Below, in pieces: positions 3,869 to 23,965 of a stretch of 24,247 nucleotides of DNA (position 1 is its first letter; each line of letters opens with the position of its first letter). The position numbers and the translations under genes were made by a program. The stretch is taken from positions 3,958 through 28,204 of the forward strand of contig PMCF01000162.1 in NCBI GenBank assembly GCA_003154115.1, read 5' to 3'. The DNA comes from Anaerolineae bacterium. Lineage in GTDB: Bacteria > Chloroflexota > Anaerolineae > Fen-1058. The notes below the pieces were generated by a model, which was not told the DNA's origin, did not search any database, and saw only the letters and a program-made list of their open reading frames with translations.

Positions 3869-4831
3869 TTAAAGGCTGCGCTGCGGCGGGGGATCGAGGG
3901 CCAGGGCTAACGCGCCTAACAAGCCGACATCGCCGCTGAGCTGCGCGGGAACGATGGGGCAGGCGTAGCGCGGGCTCATGGGATAGCGTTCGACGGCGTC
4001 GCGTATCGGCTTGAAGAGTCGCTCGCCCAGATTGCTGACACCGCCGCCGATCACGACAATCGTCGGATTGAAGATGTGCAAGTAGGTCACGATGGCTAGA
4101 CCAAAGGCGCGGAACGATCGATCGAAAACGTCATTGGCCAAGACATCGCCTTGATCTGCTGCCTGCGCGAGGACTTCGACGTTGATGGCATCGAAGTCGC
4201 CCGCCACGAGATCGGTAATTTGACTCTGCTCGCCCGCCGTCAAACGTTCGACCACTTGCCGCACTAAGCCCGTGCCAGAGGCGATCGATTCAATGCAGCC
4301 GATGTTGCCGCATTGACAGACGACGCCGTTGCAATCCACTGTGATGTGGCCCAGTTCGGCGGCTAAGCCCTCGCTGCCGAGCAGTAAGTGCCGGTTGACG
4401 ACGACCCCGCCGCCGATGCCGGTGCTGATGGTGAGAAACACCACATCATCGTGTCCGCGCGCTGCGCCATAGCGCCATTCGGCCAGGCCGGCCAGGTTGG
4501 CATCATTGCCGATGACCACAGGCACTTTGAAGATGGCTTGCAGCCGATCACGCAGGGGCACGTTGACGAAGCCGGGAATGTTCGGCGCGACAAAGACCAG
4601 GCCGGTGTAGGGATCGAGCGGGCCGGGCGCGACGACGCCAATGCTAAGGACCGTGCTTTGCGTGGGCCAAACTTCGCGCAGAGATTCGGCAATGCGCTCG
4701 ATCACGGCGTCTGGGCCGTCTTCGCCGCGCGTAAATTGTTCCGTGCGGGCCTCAATGGTGCCATCGGGTTGGCAACGTGCTGCGCGAATGCGTGTTCCAC
4801 CCAGATCGACCGTTAAATAAACTTTGTTCAT
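3869..4831 (-). CDS. ROK-family sugar kinase (glucokinase-like, no N-terminal HTH)
   Basis: Begins MNKVYLTVDLGGTRIRAA (ATP-binding DxGGT). ROK zinc motif CQCGNIGCIESIASG. Start taken at the internal ATG (4831) preceded by GAGAGGA. The ORF-track start at 4894 lacks an RBS. Confidence 0.8.
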   Translation of the reverse strand: MNKVYLTVDLGGTRIRAARCQPDGTIEARTEQFTRGEDGPDAVIERIAESLREVWPTQSTVLSIGVVAPGPLDPYTGLVFVAPNIPGFVNVPLRDRLQAIFKVPVVIGNDANLAGLAEWRYGAARGHDDVVFLTISTGIGGGVVVNRHLLLGSEGLAAELGHITVDCNGVVCQCGNIGCIESIASGTGLVRQVVERLTAGEQSQITDLVAGDFDAINVEVLAQAADQGDVLANDVFDRSFRAFGLAIVTYLHIFNPTIVVIGGGVSNLGERLFKPIRDAVERYPMSPRYACPIVPAQLSGDVGLLGALALALDPPPQRSL

Positions 4832-4879
4832 GATAAATCCTCTCGTGAAGTCAGCCCCAGTATACTCGAAATGCGACTT

Positions 4880-5008
4880 TGGACAAGTCAGCAATTCTCA
4901 ATATGAAAACAATTGACGTCGGTAGTTGCGACTTCAGTCGCCTTGTGGCCGCAGACCACGACTGAAGTCGTTACTACGAATCCAAATTGAGAACTGCTGT
5001 GGACAAGT
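4880..5008. mobile_element. MITE-like element: 9-bp direct repeats (TGGACAAGT) flanking 14-bp terminal inverted repeats around a 19-bp-stem hairpin
   Basis: TGGACAAGT at 4880-4888 and 5000-5008. CAGCAATTCTCAAT at 4889-4902 versus ATTGAGAACTGCTG at 4986-4999 (13/14 complementary). Internal hairpin 4922-4977. Non-coding. Confidence 0.4.
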
Positions 5009-5054
5009 GGGGCGACTGGTCAAGCCGTCACTCATCGTGTATGATCAAACGTAA

Positions 5055-5160
5055 CTACTCAGGCGTCATTGCGAGGAGCGCTTCTCAGCGGCGAAGCAAT
5101 CTCTACGTCGATCGGGAGATTGCTTCGCAAAAAGCGCTCGCAATGACGGTGGCTGAGTAG
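5055..5160. repeat. Long (106 nt) near-perfect extended hairpin / palindromic element immediately upstream of the 5200 gene
   Basis: Nested complementary blocks: CTACTCAG/CTGAGTAG, CGTCATTGCGAG/CTCGCAATGACG, GAGCGCT/AGCGCTC, GCGAAGCAATCTC/GAGATTGCTTCGC. Apical loop TACGTCGATCGG. About 40 bp paired. Confidence 0.4.
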
Positions 5161-5199
5161 ATACGATCAAGCGACGTTTATGATGTGTGAAGAGTAAGC

Positions 5200-5640
5200 A
5201 TGAGCGAATTGCCGACAGTCAGCGAGAAGACCTTTCGATATCCGGCGCTCTATCGGGTGGTGGCGTTATTTGGCGCGTTGTTGTTTGGATTCATCTTGTT
5301 GGGGTCGGTGATCGCCGAGGTTGAAGCGATCAAGAACAGCCGGATCGATGCCGTGCTGCACGTGATCGGATTCATCTCCGGTATGCTGTTGTTGGTGATG
5401 GGAATTGATTTTGCCACCCGCTCGATTACAGTGACGCCCGACGGCTTGCGAGTGCGGTGGTTGCTGCGCCGATCGGTGATACCGTGGTCCGACGTGCTCA
5501 GCTGGAACTACTTGCCCTTGAGCCTCATCCATCTGCGCTTCCGGCACGGGCGTGGCGTGTATGTGTGGCCGCTATTGGAAGATTATCTGGATCTGCTCAG
5601 CGCGATCGACGCGCGAAGGTTTGACCAGTTCACTAAGTGA
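5200..5640 (+). CDS. Small membrane protein, two TM helices followed by a bacterial PH-like (DUF304/YdbS-like) domain
   Basis: 146-aa ORF. Hydrophobic helices at about 20-40 and 52-72, then ITVTPDGLRVRWLLRRSVIPWSDV... The stop is followed closely by the next gene. Confidence 0.5.
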   Translation: MSELPTVSEKTFRYPALYRVVALFGALLFGFILLGSVIAEVEAIKNSRIDAVLHVIGFISGMLLLVMGIDFATRSITVTPDGLRVRWLLRRSVIPWSDVLSWNYLPLSLIHLRFRHGRGVYVWPLLEDYLDLLSAIDARRFDQFTK

Positions 5641-5650
5641 GAGGTGGTTT

Positions 5651-5959
5651 ATGCCTAAATCGAACTCGGTGACCAAAGATGATGACCGGCAGATGTTGCT
5701 GGTGAAGTGGAAGGATGGCACGACGAGCGAGATTGCGTGGAAGACCCTGCGCGACAATTGCCCGTGCGCCGAATGTGCCGAGCTGCACGGCCCGGCCGAT
5801 CCGCTGCGTTTGAAGCTTGCGCCCAACACCAGCCTGATCGAGATCAACTACGTGGGCAACTATGCCGTGCAGCCACGCTGGGCTGACGGGCACTCGGCGG
5901 GCCTGTTCACCTGGAATTATCTGCGCGACCTGGCCGGGATCATGCCCGCGCCGCAATGA
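5651..5959 (+). CDS. DUF971 family protein (gamma-butyrobetaine hydroxylase-like N-terminal fold)
   Basis: MPKSN... LLVKWKDGTTSEIAWKTLRDNCPCAECA ... YAVQPRWADGHSAGLFTWNYLRDL matches the DUF971 signature. ATG at 5651 is preceded by GAGGTGG. The ORF-track start at 5552 lies inside the previous gene. Confidence 0.7.
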   Translation: MPKSNSVTKDDDRQMLLVKWKDGTTSEIAWKTLRDNCPCAECAELHGPADPLRLKLAPNTSLIEINYVGNYAVQPRWADGHSAGLFTWNYLRDLAGIMPAPQ

Positions 5960-6011
5960 TGCTTGACGCTTTTGTTTGATTCTAACTCCGGCTTGCTGTA
6001 CGGTGAACTTC

Positions 6012-8582
6012 ATGCTCAACGACGACCTCACTCCCATTCGACGGCAGTATCTGCAAATCAAAAGCCAGTATCCCGATACGATTTTGTTTTTCCGCCTCGG
6101 CGACTTCTATGAGACTTTCGATGCTGACGCAGAGCTCATCGCGCATGAACTCGACATCGTGCTCACGTCGCGACCGGTGGGCAAAGGGCAGCGTGTGCCG
6201 CTGGCGGGTGTGCCCTATCATGCCGCCGATAACTACATCGCCCGTTTGATCGAGAAGGGTTATCGGGTGGCCGTGGCCGAACAGCTGGCCGATCCTGCGA
6301 CGGTGAAAGGCATCGTGCCGCGCGATGTGACGCGCGTGATCACGCCGGGCACGGTGATCGAGCCGGAGTTGTTGGACGAGAAGCGCCCGAATTATCTGGC
6401 CGCGTGGCTCAGTGACGGACAACACGTGGGCTTTGCGTACGCCGATGTGACCACGGGCGAATTCGCCGCGACGCAGATCGAATCGATTGCCGCGGGCGAG
6501 CAGGAATTGCTGCGCGTGATGCCGCGCGAATGCTTGCTGCCAGTCGCCGATGAAAAAAGCCGCGAAGCTGTCGTGCGGCCTGCGACGGGCAATGCGCTCA
6601 TTCACTTCACGCCGTTTACGGCCTGGCGCTTTGAAGCATCGCAGGCGCGGCAAGTGGTGTCGGATCATTTTCAGGTGACGACCCTGGCGGGCTTCGGCCT
6701 GGATCGCAAGCCGTTGGCCGTGCGCGCCGCCGGAGCGATTGTGCAGTATCTGCAAGAAACGCAGGCGGGCGTGCTGGCGCAATTCACCAGCCTGCGATCG
6801 TATTCCACCAGCGAATTCATGACGCTCGATCCGGCGACGCGGCGCAACCTCGAGCTCACCGACACCCTGCGCGGAAAAGACGCAAAACTTTCTTTGCTGG
6901 GCGTGCTCGATCATACGCGCACGGCGATGGGCAGCCGCCTGCTGCGGGCATGGTTGTCTCAGCCACTGTTGGATCAAGCCGCCTTAGAGCAGCGGCTCGA
7001 TCGGGTGCAGCTCTTCTGCGACGATGCGTTGTTGCGCGCAAAGGCGCGTGAGCTCCTTAAGCAAGTTCCCGATCTGGAGCGGGCCGTGGGCCGCATCATC
7101 AGCGGGCACGCCGCGCCGCGCGACCTGGTGGCGATTCGTGCGACGTTGCAGATCGTGCCTGATCTGGCGAAAGTACTGGAACTCTCACAAGGTTGGTCGC
7201 TTGATCCCGCGCCCGATGTGCTCGATCTGCTCCATCGCGCGATCGTGGAAGAGCCGTCTAATGCGCCACCGGGTGTGATTCAATCGGGTTTCAGCGCCGA
7301 GCTCGATGGGGTGCTGCAGGCTTCACGCAATGCCAAGGAATGGGTCGCCAATCTGGAGCGTACCGAAAAAGAACGCACCGGCATCAAGTCGTTGAAGGTG
7401 GGCTACAACAAAGTCTTCGGCTATTACATCGAAGTGACGCACGCCAACACGCAAGCGGTGCCTGATAACTACATTCGCAAGCAGACGCTCACCAACGCCG
7501 AGCGCTACATCACACCGGAACTGAAAGAGTACGAGACGTTGATCCTCAATGCCGACGATCGGTTAGTGGAAGTGGAGCAGCGTTTGATCAAAGAAATCTG
7601 CGCGCAGGTCACGGCCCGATCGGTGGTGCTGCTCTCAACGGCTCGCTCGATCGCGCAGATCGATGTGGCCTCCGCGCTGGCCGAAGCCGCGGCGTTGAAT
7701 CGCTATGTGCGACCTGAACTGACCGACGAGATTGCGCTGCACATCGTCAGTGGGCGGCATCCGGTGGTGGAGCAGGCGTTGAGCGAGACGCGCTTTGTCC
7801 CGAACGATGTGACCTTTGACGACGAGGCGCGCGTCCTCATCATCACCGGGCCGAATATGGCGGGCAAATCGACCTTCCTGCGGCAGGTGGCGCTGATCGT
7901 GTTGATGGCCCAGCTCGGATCGTTCGTGCCGGCCGATCGGGCGCAGATTGGCCTGGTCGATCGCATCTTCACACGCATCGGCGCGCAGGATGACATCGCG
8001 ACCGGGCAATCGACCTTCATGGTGGAGATGGTGGAAACGGCGAACATTCTGCATCATGCCACGGCGCGCAGTCTGATCGTGTTGGATGAGATCGGGCGCG
8101 GGACCAGCACCTACGATGGGCTGTCGATTGCGTGGTCGGTCGTCGAATACATCCACAATCATCCACGCTTGCGCGCCAAGACGCTGTTTGCCACGCACTA
8201 CCACGAATTGATTCAACTCGCCGATCATTTGCCGCACGTGCGCAATTACAATGTCGCCGTCGCGGAGGAGGGCGATAAGGTGGTGTTCCTGCACCACATT
8301 GTGCCGGGCGGCGCGGATCGATCGTATGGTATTCATGTTGCGCAGTTGGCGGGCTTGCCTAAGCCGGTTATTCGCCGGGCCGAAGAGTTGCTGGAAGAAT
8401 TGGAAGAGGGCCAACGCGATCATGCCACGGGCAACGCACCGCGTGAAGCAGCGACGCTGCAATTGAGCCTGTTCGGCGCGAAGAATCCTGTGCTAGAGGA
8501 ATTAGAGAAGTTGGATGTGAATGCGCTCTCACCGTTGGAGGCGTTGAACAAGTTGTTTGAGTGGAAGAAGAAGGCCGGATAG
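6012..8582 (+). CDS. mutS: DNA mismatch repair protein MutS
   Basis: N-terminus LTPIRRQYLQIKSQYPDTILFFRLGDFYETF (mismatch-binding domain). Walker A GPNMAGKST. Typical MutS ATPase (STFMVEMVE, DEIGRGTSTYDG) and C-terminal HTH. Start placed at the ATG matching the E. coli MutS N-terminus. Confidence 0.9.
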   Translation: MLNDDLTPIRRQYLQIKSQYPDTILFFRLGDFYETFDADAELIAHELDIVLTSRPVGKGQRVPLAGVPYHAADNYIARLIEKGYRVAVAEQLADPATVKGIVPRDVTRVITPGTVIEPELLDEKRPNYLAAWLSDGQHVGFAYADVTTGEFAATQIESIAAGEQELLRVMPRECLLPVADEKSREAVVRPATGNALIHFTPFTAWRFEASQARQVVSDHFQVTTLAGFGLDRKPLAVRAAGAIVQYLQETQAGVLAQFTSLRSYSTSEFMTLDPATRRNLELTDTLRGKDAKLSLLGVLDHTRTAMGSRLLRAWLSQPLLDQAALEQRLDRVQLFCDDALLRAKARELLKQVPDLERAVGRIISGHAAPRDLVAIRATLQIVPDLAKVLELSQGWSLDPAPDVLDLLHRAIVEEPSNAPPGVIQSGFSAELDGVLQASRNAKEWVANLERTEKERTGIKSLKVGYNKVFGYYIEVTHANTQAVPDNYIRKQTLTNAERYITPELKEYETLILNADDRLVEVEQRLIKEICAQVTARSVVLLSTARSIAQIDVASALAEAAALNRYVRPELTDEIALHIVSGRHPVVEQALSETRFVPNDVTFDDEARVLIITGPNMAGKSTFLRQVALIVLMAQLGSFVPADRAQIGLVDRIFTRIGAQDDIATGQSTFMVEMVETANILHHATARSLIVLDEIGRGTSTYDGLSIAWSVVEYIHNHPRLRAKTLFATHYHELIQLADHLPHVRNYNVAVAEEGDKVVFLHHIVPGGADRSYGIHVAQLAGLPKPVIRRAEELLEELEEGQRDHATGNAPREAATLQLSLFGAKNPVLEELEKLDVNALSPLEALNKLFEWKKKAG

Positions 8583-8610: not shown

Positions 8611-8653
8611 AACTCGGTCGGCTATTTTTTGCCAGCCGAGTTTTTCTTCTTCT
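8611..8653. terminator. Probable bidirectional terminator after mutS, overlapping the last codons of the convergent tfoX-like gene
   Basis: AACTCGGTCGGC / GCCAGCCGAGTT arms (10/12 paired) with loop TATTTTTT, followed by TTTCTTCTTCTT. Confidence 0.45.
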
Positions 8654-8963
8654 TAACGGGCAAGGGCAATTCTTTCGCGGTGACTTTGATCAACTCGGTC
8701 AGCGCTTCGCGGTCTTCCAGTAGATCGGCGGAAATCAGGAAGCACGGTTTCGCGCCGGGATAAGGGCTGGCTTCCGTAATCGTTTTCAACAGACTTCTGC
8801 CGCCTATGGTCGGCTTGACGAAGAGTTGATCGTCACACACCAGGGCGACCATTTTTCCGTCGCAGTACAGGCCGTATTCGCCAAACATCTTTCGTGCAGA
8901 GACATTGCCTGCTTCTGAAATTTGATCGAGAATGAAATCGACCGTGCTTTGTTGAGAGGACAT
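8622..8963 (-). CDS. tfoX: TfoX/Sxy N-terminal-domain protein (competence-regulator family, N-domain only)
   Basis: MSSQQSTVDFILDQI...ARKMFGEYGLYCDGKMVALVCDDQLFVK is a typical TfoX_N signature. No TfoX_C domain; lysine-rich tail. Start at the ATG preceded by GGAG (8963) rather than the upstream ATG at 8981. Confidence 0.7.
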   Translation of the reverse strand: MSSQQSTVDFILDQISEAGNVSARKMFGEYGLYCDGKMVALVCDDQLFVKPTIGGRSLLKTITEASPYPGAKPCFLISADLLEDREALTELIKVTAKELPLPVKKKKNSAGKK

Positions 8964-8981
8964 GAAAACTCCTTGAATCAT

Positions 8982-20114: not shown

Positions 20115-20180
20115 GGAGAAACCGGGTTTCACCTTTCCAGATCGTCACGCAGTTCAAATGGCAGAAACCCGGTTTCTTCT
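20115..20180. repeat. Paired palindromic repeat (GAGAAACCGGGTTTC ... AGAAACCCGGTTTCT) between convergent genes; REP-like / probable bidirectional terminator
   Basis: Each arm is itself a palindrome, and the two arms are mutual inverted repeats separated by about 31 nt. Begins 2 nt after the lipoprotein stop. A second copy is at 23891-23953. Confidence 0.5.
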
Positions 20181-21666: not shown

Positions 21667-21814
21667 GGTTGCTGCTCCTTCAGAATGATTGAAATGTTAG
21701 GCTGCAGTAAGGCCCGGGGCGGAGTAACAAAAAATCCGCTTCAGGTTCCCGTAAGCCCGAGCGGATCTTGACTGCTACAACCACTTCAGGTTCTTACCGC
21801 TTCCTACGCGCCAA

Positions 21815-21843
21815 ACTATAGCATGCGGCTGTGGTAATGTCAA
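21815..21843 (-). promoter_or_regulatory. Strong sigma70-type promoter of cspA with a long (about 140 nt) 5' leader
   Basis: On the minus strand: TTGACA (21843-21838), 17-nt spacer, TATAGT (21820-21815). The predicted TSS, about 140 nt upstream of the GTG, gives a long leader as in enterobacterial cspA. Confidence 0.55.
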
Positions 21844-22065
21844 ATTTCGCAGTTTTTGGCGATTGGACTTTATCGAGTATAACCGCCGCTGCTTATCAAA
21901 CCGCGCAGACGGGGAGCCTATTTTCGATAAAGTCCATTGAGCGAAGGGCCTCTGAAGGTAAATGTATTTTCAGAGGCCACGCAGTCTTATGCTCGCGTAA
22001 CGTCATCCTGGATTAAGGAGATTACTCTTGCTGGCGGGTGTTCCGGCGGCGTCCTTGCGTAACAC

Positions 22066-23872: not shown

Positions 23873-23890
23873 CGGCGCCGCGCGTGAAAC

Positions 23891-23953
23891 GAGAAACCAG
23901 GTTTCTCCAGTTGGAACGGAATTGCACTCTGATATGGAGAAACCCGGTTTCTG
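23891..23953. repeat. Second copy of the paired palindromic repeat (GAGAAACCAGGTTTCTC ... GGAGAAACCCGGTTTCTG) between convergent genes
   Basis: Same architecture as 20115-20180. Begins 19 nt after the yhhN-like stop and ends 13 nt before the convergent LLM gene stop. Confidence 0.5.
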
Positions 23954-23965
23954 TGTCAGGTGTCG

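Follow-up and report, generated by a model that had tools for sequence, protein, structure and literature searches.

The divergent region between a ROK-family gene (minus strand) and a bPH-like membrane protein gene (plus strand) contains a 111-bp non-coding element, termed MITE A, which very probably owes its recent insertion to a DDE transposase provided in trans by a 1.43-kb, 9-bp-duplicating IS family. Judged by every defining criterion, namely terminal inverted repeats (TIRs), a target-site duplication, size, further copies and a partner IS, MITE A is a MITE, and it is a real but ordinary kind of mobile DNA. A non-autonomous transposable element had already been proposed here in an earlier reading made from the letters alone (the sequence-only reading), and this proposal is now supported by empty sites in relatives, by other copies and by a cognate IS, each of which goes against the condition that the reading had set for its own refutation. 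Coordinates refer to the window, which is the whole stretch of 24,247 nucleotides that was analysed. The features of the locus are as follows.

3869-4831, minus strand: ROK-family gene, 320 aa; start codon 57 bp away from MITE A
4859-4886, minus strand: predicted sigma-70-type promoter of the ROK gene; -35 TTGTCC, 16-nt spacer, -10 TATACT; consensus match only
4880-4888, no strand: target-site duplication, left copy, TGGACAAGT, 9 bp
4889-4999, no strand: MITE A, 111 bp, non-coding; member of the CAGCAATTCTCA-terminus family
4889-4905, plus strand: left TIR, CAGCAATTCTCAATATG; matches the family and IS terminus CAGCAATTCTCAWTWTG
4922-4977, no strand: core hairpin of inverted GTAG-tagged imperfect palindromes GTAGTTGCGACTTCAGTCGC / GTAGTAACGACTTCAGTCGT with an 18-nt loop; subfamily-specific
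4983-4999, minus strand: right TIR, CAAATTGAGAACTGCTG; reverse complement CAGCAGTTCTCAATTTG
5000-5008, no strand: target-site duplication, right copy, TGGACAAGT, 9 bp, perfect; start-to-start spacing 120
5017-5045, plus strand: predicted promoter of the bPH-like gene; -35 TGGTCA, 17-nt spacer, -10 TATGAT (5040-5045); consensus match only
5200-5640, plus strand: bPH_6-like membrane protein gene, 146 aa

Structure and boundaries of MITE A

Reading of the window and a repeat finder both returned the direct 9-bp repeat that the sequence-only reading had placed at 4880-4888 and 5000-5008, in the form of TGGACAAGT occurring twice. The 14-nt inverted repeats described just inside it, with 13 of 14 positions complementary, were correct and could be extended by the repeat finder to 17 nt, of which 15 match (88% complementary). 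The coordinates and strands of the ROK gene and the PH-like membrane gene bear out the placing of the element in the divergent region that separates them. The interior of MITE A contains an inner stem of 19 nt (4922-4940 / 4959-4977, 89%), and as single-stranded DNA the element folds with -27.6 kcal/mol, compared with -11.2 +/- 2.5 for shuffled sequences (z = -6.6). The hairpin with a 19-bp stem that had been made part of the insertion signature is therefore present, but it is a trait of the subfamily only, a strongly palindromic interior being found in only about 19% of family members.

The claim that the element lacks coding capacity was borne out, since the ORFs that touch MITE A are all spurious and of 57 aa or less, one of 42 aa (4926-5054) and one of 57 aa (4987-5160). 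The latter, on the plus strand and containing the string VIARSASQRRSNLYVDREIASQKALAMT, spans the right end of MITE A plus the neighbouring element B; peptides of this kind are presumably typical of gene callers reading through a GTCATTGCGAG-type hairpin repeat. A longer ORF, starting at 4894, runs into MITE A and was rejected as an artefact.

Orthologous loci were taken from contigs around a graded series of bPH-like protein orthologues. Alignments showed an empty site in seven of these loci, with nucleotide identities of the flanking genes of 94% (L259 and L261), 90-91% (L004) and 85-88% (L006, L007, L010 and L011). The empty alleles read GACTTTGGACAAGT followed directly by GGG(G)CGACTGG, with a single TGGACAAGT and no insert, which is the arrangement that the sequence-only reading had named as the one to look for in related genomes. 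The ROK/bPH intergenic region is about 125 bp long (125-126 bp) in the empty-site relatives, and in two more relatives the gene spacing of 123 and 125 bp, taken by itself, indicates that the site is also empty. Three other assemblies of the same strain (L001, L002 and L258) carry an identical intergenic region of 368 bp, and among the orthologous regions compared MITE A was found at this locus only in that strain. The insertion is recent, the site being filled in these three assemblies and empty in L259, a relative at 94% identity.

The alignments with the empty alleles define the inserted segment as 4889-4999 plus one copy of TGGACAAGT, and these limits are also where the TIRs of MITE A end. 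The two copies of TGGACAAGT are bordered by unlike bases (T/C for the left copy and G/G for the right), so that the duplication is 9 bp long. That the arrangement is beyond chance follows from the empty sites together with the family data and not from statistics on the window. The further GCGACT hexamer noted on each side of the insertion is real, at 4873-4878 and 5012-5017; both hexamers also occur in the empty-site orthologues, so they are native sequence that lies outside the insertion signature and is irrelevant to it.

The CAGCAATTCTCA-terminus family and its autonomous IS

Copies of MITE A of the same 111-bp length, 95.5-96.4% identical, were found at three other loci (L133, 5977-6087; L151, 1230-1340; L194, 6371-6481), with unrelated flanks and with their own duplications of 9, 8 and 7 bp, respectively. 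The sequence-only reading had asked for other copies with matching TIRs, and these three at unrelated loci, together with family members in at least 119 metagenome contigs, answer to that description. Two further members of the cluster to which MITE A belongs, L146 and L155, are about 75% identical to it. The two arms of the core have changed in concert in L146, from TTCAG/CTGAA to TTTAG/CTAAA, and the loop of the hairpin varies within the subfamily.

The metagenome scan was carried out with the pattern CAGCARTTCTCA-N(80-105)-TGAGAAYTGCTG, and allowing up to 2 mismatches in the 12-mers it returned at least 124 unique copies with a length of 105-126 bp and a mode of 122. Terminus positions 1-12 were set by the search pattern, and their invariance is by construction; positions 13-17, which were not fixed, are nevertheless conserved (T 0.71, T 0.96, W, T 0.97 and G 0.78), and the terminus of the family is therefore about 17 nt long, CAGCAATTCTCAWTWTG. 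Of the 118 copies among the matches listed, 45 have a perfect 9-bp duplication and 67 one with at most 1 mismatch, with almost none in registers of 7, 8, 10 or 11 bp. About 30% of the family copies have no recognisable 9-bp duplication, which probably reflects decay or rearrangement. No target-site consensus was found among the family copies. The conservation of positions 13-17, the exact 9-bp duplication and the lack of a target consensus are results independent of the search pattern. At least 44 unrelated clusters of interiors were distinguished, and the GC content of the host contigs ranges from 33 to 66%. Searches of the full-text literature for the terminus string returned unrelated primers only.

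In a plasmid BLAST with concatenated cluster representatives, the largest subfamily (24 copies) was found on Microcystis aeruginosa plasmids at 83-86% identity. One such member, on a plasmid of M. aeruginosa FD4 (NZ_CP046974.1; L252, 6899-7215), is flanked by AACTTTGGC on both sides and contains, nested within it, an insert of about 195 bp with ends GGTTCTTCGG..., which is the ISL3-type 187-nt MITE of Microcystis (PMC11448079). In a JGI metagenome contig (L240, 3500-3538) a truncated MITE is followed immediately by the Illumina adapter AGATCGGAAGAGCACACGTCTGAACTCCAGTCAC at the contig end, an assembly artefact.

The same plasmid BLAST gave a 36-nt match on a plasmid of Methylomagnum ishizawai, through which the IS was discovered. 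This copy (L262, 5001-8311; plasmid pRS11DPr2, NZ_AP019785.1, 122054-125364) is 3311 bp long, with 19-nt TIRs and the duplication CAAGAATTC on both sides. A group II intron (ltrA, locus 5400-6650) lies in its transposase gene and divides the catalytic motif between RWKVE and NENNN, and the IS itself interrupts a sigma-factor-like gene. A search with the reconstructed transposase of 444 aa gave at least 5397 homologues with E <= 1e-10. Among the matches listed, the homologues are mostly 445 aa long and located on contigs of 1.4-2 kb, and the few that are named carry the labels "transposase" or, from NCBI, "ISNCY family transposase". The 1.43-kb IS may belong to the ISNCY/ISMae2 group. On long contigs the intact copies measure 1425-1428 bp, with termini CAGCAATTCTCATTWTGGCG / ...TGRCC and perfect 9-bp duplications, as listed below; the termini of MITE A and its duplication length are both the same, which supplies the cognate IS that the sequence-only reading had suggested searching for.

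L263: IS copy, duplication ATACAGAGA
L264: IS copy, duplication GCATGGGGG
L269: IS copy, duplication GGAATTGAT
L270 and L271: IS copies, duplication TGTGCATAA
L267: IS copy with a nested IS1595 inside, duplication CCCGGTCGC

Plasmid copies with the same terminus were found in Nostoc punctiforme PCC 73102 (pNPUN02; WP_234711115.1, 54% protein identity), and the terminus is also retained in the plasmid copy of Gloeothece verrucosa PCC 7822 (WP_013335080.1, 43%); in a Saccharobesus relative (33%) it is reduced to CAGCAATT. The residues of the DDE catalytic triad, D132, D221 and E345, the last within RWKIENE..N.LK, are invariant across members of 33-75% identity. Matches to the Pfam domains DDE_Tnp_1_assoc and DDE_Tnp_1 were sub-threshold in all four transposases scanned, and none of the NCBIfam models, including those for ISAs1 and IS4, reaches its cut-off for the 445-aa transposase. 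Alignment with E. coli ISAs1 YhhI by hhalign was weak (E = 0.017, probability 2.6%), with the first two catalytic aspartates in register. These sequence comparisons suggest an unclassified family with a distant relationship to the ISAs1/IS4 group. Membership of ISAs1 itself was rejected because the termini begin CAGCA and not CAGGG, no NCBIfam model applies, the Pfam matches are sub-threshold and the hhalign probability is 2.6%.

Neither the 24-kb window nor about 4 kb of additional flank encodes a transposase of the 445-aa family. In approximately 860 kb of MITE-bearing contigs, no full-length IS was found by a search for degenerate TIR pairs 136-5000 bp apart with a duplication check, nor by a TIR-agnostic search for inverted repeats in the same contigs. 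A scan of viral contigs with the 17-nt terminus returned four lone ends, of which L251 resembles the left end of the M. ishizawai IS, while that in L249 has no adjoining transposase. Several other elements were rejected as partners on account of differing termini: the ISKra4-family IS of a Microcystis plasmid (GGGAGCATCTCAC...), the IS4-family IS of the NIES-2481 plasmid (CTGACAGGGGG...), and the ISAs1 elements of E. coli, Gloeothece, Acaryochloris and Thermus (CAGGG... or CCAGAC...). On plasmid p1 of Microcystis NIES-2481 (L253, 3700-5700), an IS4-family IS with termini CTGACAGGGGGACAAGC is located inside a CRISPR array.

Promoters, neighbouring elements and other hairpins of the window

The promoter scan found the predicted ROK promoter conserved in the empty-site orthologue, as is the predicted bPH-like promoter. 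In the empty alleles the two lie back-to-back in invariant alignment columns, with their -35 hexamers 9 bp apart, and the insertion point of MITE A is exactly between these two predicted -35 boxes. The ROK -35 hexamer (minus strand, 4886-4881; TTGTCC / GGACAA) lies inside the left copy of TGGACAAGT, and because the duplicated 9 bp contain it, both predicted core promoters are intact. By this arrangement MITE A would have moved the predicted promoters 120 bp further apart and given them new upstream DNA, with both cores surviving, and it may affect expression. Of the 368 bp of the intergenic region, 243 bp (about two thirds) are recently acquired mobile DNA, and regulatory readings of the hairpins in it must begin from their origin as such. 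The remaining elements to which this applies, or which were encountered with it, are the following.

5051-5164, no strand: MITE B, 114 bp; termini GTAWCTACTCAG; directly after the predicted -10 of the bPH promoter
8980-9110 (approximate), no strand: element C, decayed and belonging to the same superfamily (L160/L179 subfamily); located upstream of the TfoX_N gene

MITE B is flanked by GATCAA(A/G)C(G) at 5043-5051 and 5165-5173, a duplication of 8 or 9 bp depending on the assignment of one G, and it is probably transcribed, to judge by its position, as a 114-nt hairpin leader at the 5' side of the bPH gene. The GTAA ends of B, together with a duplication of 8-9 bp, are reminiscent of IS66. The core of B (GTCATTGCGAG...CTCGCAATGAC) is that of a 12-member A-type subfamily, despite the differing termini. 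B is absent from L006, L007, L010, L011, L259 and L261, and a longer variant is present in L004; it is thus shared by the strain of the window and a relative at 90% identity, yet absent from the closer L259 at 94%. The stretch of 13 bases that adjoins B on its right side (TTTATGATGTGTG) is common to the window (5165-5190) and L004 (5190-5212), as against all empty alleles, and the two copies of the duplication differ (AAACG versus AAGCG), each matching a different empty allele. Compared with two independent hits, recombination of a filled allele between lineages seems the likelier origin of this distribution. Further along L004 (5942-8268) there is a break in synteny after the DUF971 gene, where a 247-aa ORF and an IS110-family transposase (7042-8268) stand in place of MutS.

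Element C is upstream of the TfoX_N gene (8643-8966, minus strand) and was picked up as one more long hairpin in a self-complementarity scan of the window; the same scan of the loci of the relatives, 15-20 kb each, found no long hairpins of this kind. The core of C aligns with the intact copies L160 and L179, its termini are degenerate and no duplication could be recognised around it; C is an old copy. A functional role for the apical motif CTTCAGnCG...GCCGCAGACCA shared by A and C (hairpin at about 9013-9072) was rejected. A scan of genome contigs for this motif gave 117 matches, all due to chance, in GC-rich genomes and with no hairpin context, and the motif has no special status because the loop varies within the A subfamily itself.

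Self-complementary units of the form AGAAACC(G/A)GGTTTCT occur elsewhere in the window as pairs 25-33 nt apart, at 20115-20180 and 23890-23955, just past the 3' ends of genes. They form a separate repeat family and resemble REP/REPIN-type doublets or bidirectional terminators. Two additional hairpins (21864-21936 and 21947-21978) are located in a non-coding stretch of approximately 21680-22060, upstream of a region with a small cold-shock-like ORF.

Origin of MITE A and comparison with known systems

In the mechanism that best accounts for MITE A, a transposase supplied in trans would recognise the 17-nt termini CAGCAATTCTCAWTWTG, the 3' ends of the element would be joined to target phosphates 9 bp apart at a staggered cut, and gap repair would produce the duplication of TGGACAAGT. 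The cut-and-paste chemistry is assumed by analogy with the established behaviour of DDE transposases, and this genome would have harboured the family transposase when the insertion took place, MITE A being mobilised there in trans. A different history, in which a full-length IS was inserted and then cut to 111 bp in situ by internal deletion, so that the short form itself never transposed, is very unlikely. It would explain why the termini and the duplication are those of the 1.43-kb IS, and MITEs are classically held to arise by internal deletion; against it, the same 111-bp form (95-96% identical, of the same length and interior) is present at three other loci with independent duplications, and hence the short form is what moves. 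The interior of MITE A is furthermore unlike those of the recovered IS copies, showing no similarity to their subterminal parts, and MITE A is therefore not a simple deletion derivative of any of them.

The core of MITE A, with two inverted GTAG-tagged imperfect palindromes and a short spacer, has the published architecture of REPINs and REP sequences, of which the GTAG-tagged superfamilies are the subject of PMC3733652. MITE A could accordingly be regarded as a REPIN-like REP doublet mobilised by RAYT (an IS200/IS605-type tyrosine transposase), with the TIRs and the duplication being incidental, but we give this hardly any credence. The boundaries seen in the empty sites coincide with the outer TIRs and not with the REP-like core, and they are flanked by a 9-bp duplication, whereas single-strand transposition of the RAYT/IS200 type leaves none. 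Across all loci examined the GTAG-tagged palindrome doublet occurs only inside MITE copies, the window contains no RAYT gene, and the same TIRs bound more than 40 unrelated interiors as well as the 1.43-kb IS. It is just as improbable that the ROK/bPH region has in this hairpin a structured RNA or regulatory element of its own (an sRNA, attenuator or operator, for instance), with the repeats forming part of the structure. The whole intergenic region does fold much better than shuffled sequences on both strands (z = -6.5 and -8.0), and the changes in the arms of L146 preserve pairing, as such an element would lead one to see. Nonetheless, the hairpin is absent from all orthologous regions except those of the same strain, near-identical copies stand in unrelated gene contexts, a scan of the intergenic region found no terminator-like site or tail, and Rfam gave 0 matches in the window at gathering thresholds, a permissive search yielding only noise (E >= 1.6). 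MITE A may have been exapted after its insertion.

Insertion by the transposase of the 1.43-kb IS family, the preferred explanation, links abundant and apparently unnamed palindromic repeats of about 122 bp to a transposase family that is unclassified by current HMM libraries. This link aids annotation, such repeats yielding spurious ORFs and breaking assemblies, and the 17-nt end and the 445-aa transposase form a defined pair that is amenable to biochemistry. A broader and rather doubtful proposal is that the CAGCAATTCTCA-terminus elements make up a modular superfamily of MITEs whose length hardly varies (mode 122 bp) and in which unrelated and often REP-like cores are exchanged or captured between TIR sets. 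It is suggested by the core that B has in common with the 12-member A-type subfamily, while B has GTAWCTACTCAG ends and possibly an 8-bp duplication. If cores truly move between TIR sets, this would point to a de novo genesis of MITEs other than by internal deletion of an IS, and also to a physical length optimum for the transposase.

MITE A resembles bacterial MITEs generally in being small and non-coding, with TIRs, direct repeats, a stable hairpin and filled and empty sites in relatives. By duplication length the closest of these is Chunjie of Geobacter uraniireducens, which is described as an A+T-rich element of 178-235 bp with 21-bp TIRs and 9-bp direct repeats (PMC3184786, PMC6042816); compared by these published lengths, the duplication is the same as that of MITE A and the size differs. 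The other candidate is Nezha of Anabaena and Nostoc, which is 130-170 bp long, with a 10-bp direct repeat in the reference copy and a TIR equal to that of ISNpu3 (PMC3184786, PMC6042816); compared by these published lengths, it differs from MITE A in both size (111 bp) and duplication (9 bp). The 122-bp elements of the Microcystis plasmids are not among the eight MaeMITE groups of that genus, which measure 176-429 bp (PMC2779907).

REPIN/REP doublets associated with RAYT share with the A subfamily a core made of a doublet of inverted GTAG-tagged palindromes; unlike the mobile unit described here, which has both, REPINs are without TIR-defined ends or a target duplication. ISAs1 (the H-repeat; ISEc1/YhhI in E. 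coli) is similar in that its termini begin with CAG, its duplication falls in the range of 8-10 bp and its transposase has the two-domain pattern DDE_Tnp_1_assoc plus DDE_Tnp_1, which is below threshold here, but its termini read CAGGG..., whereas those described here read CAGCAATTC (CAGCA). The 1.43-kb "ISNCY family" IS has 17-nt termini identical to CAGCAATTCTCAWTWTG and the same 9-bp duplication length as MITE A, from which it differs in that MITE A is 111 bp long, has no transposase and has an unrelated interior; because of these differences, MITE A is a non-autonomous passenger of the 1.43-kb IS family and is unable to move on its own.
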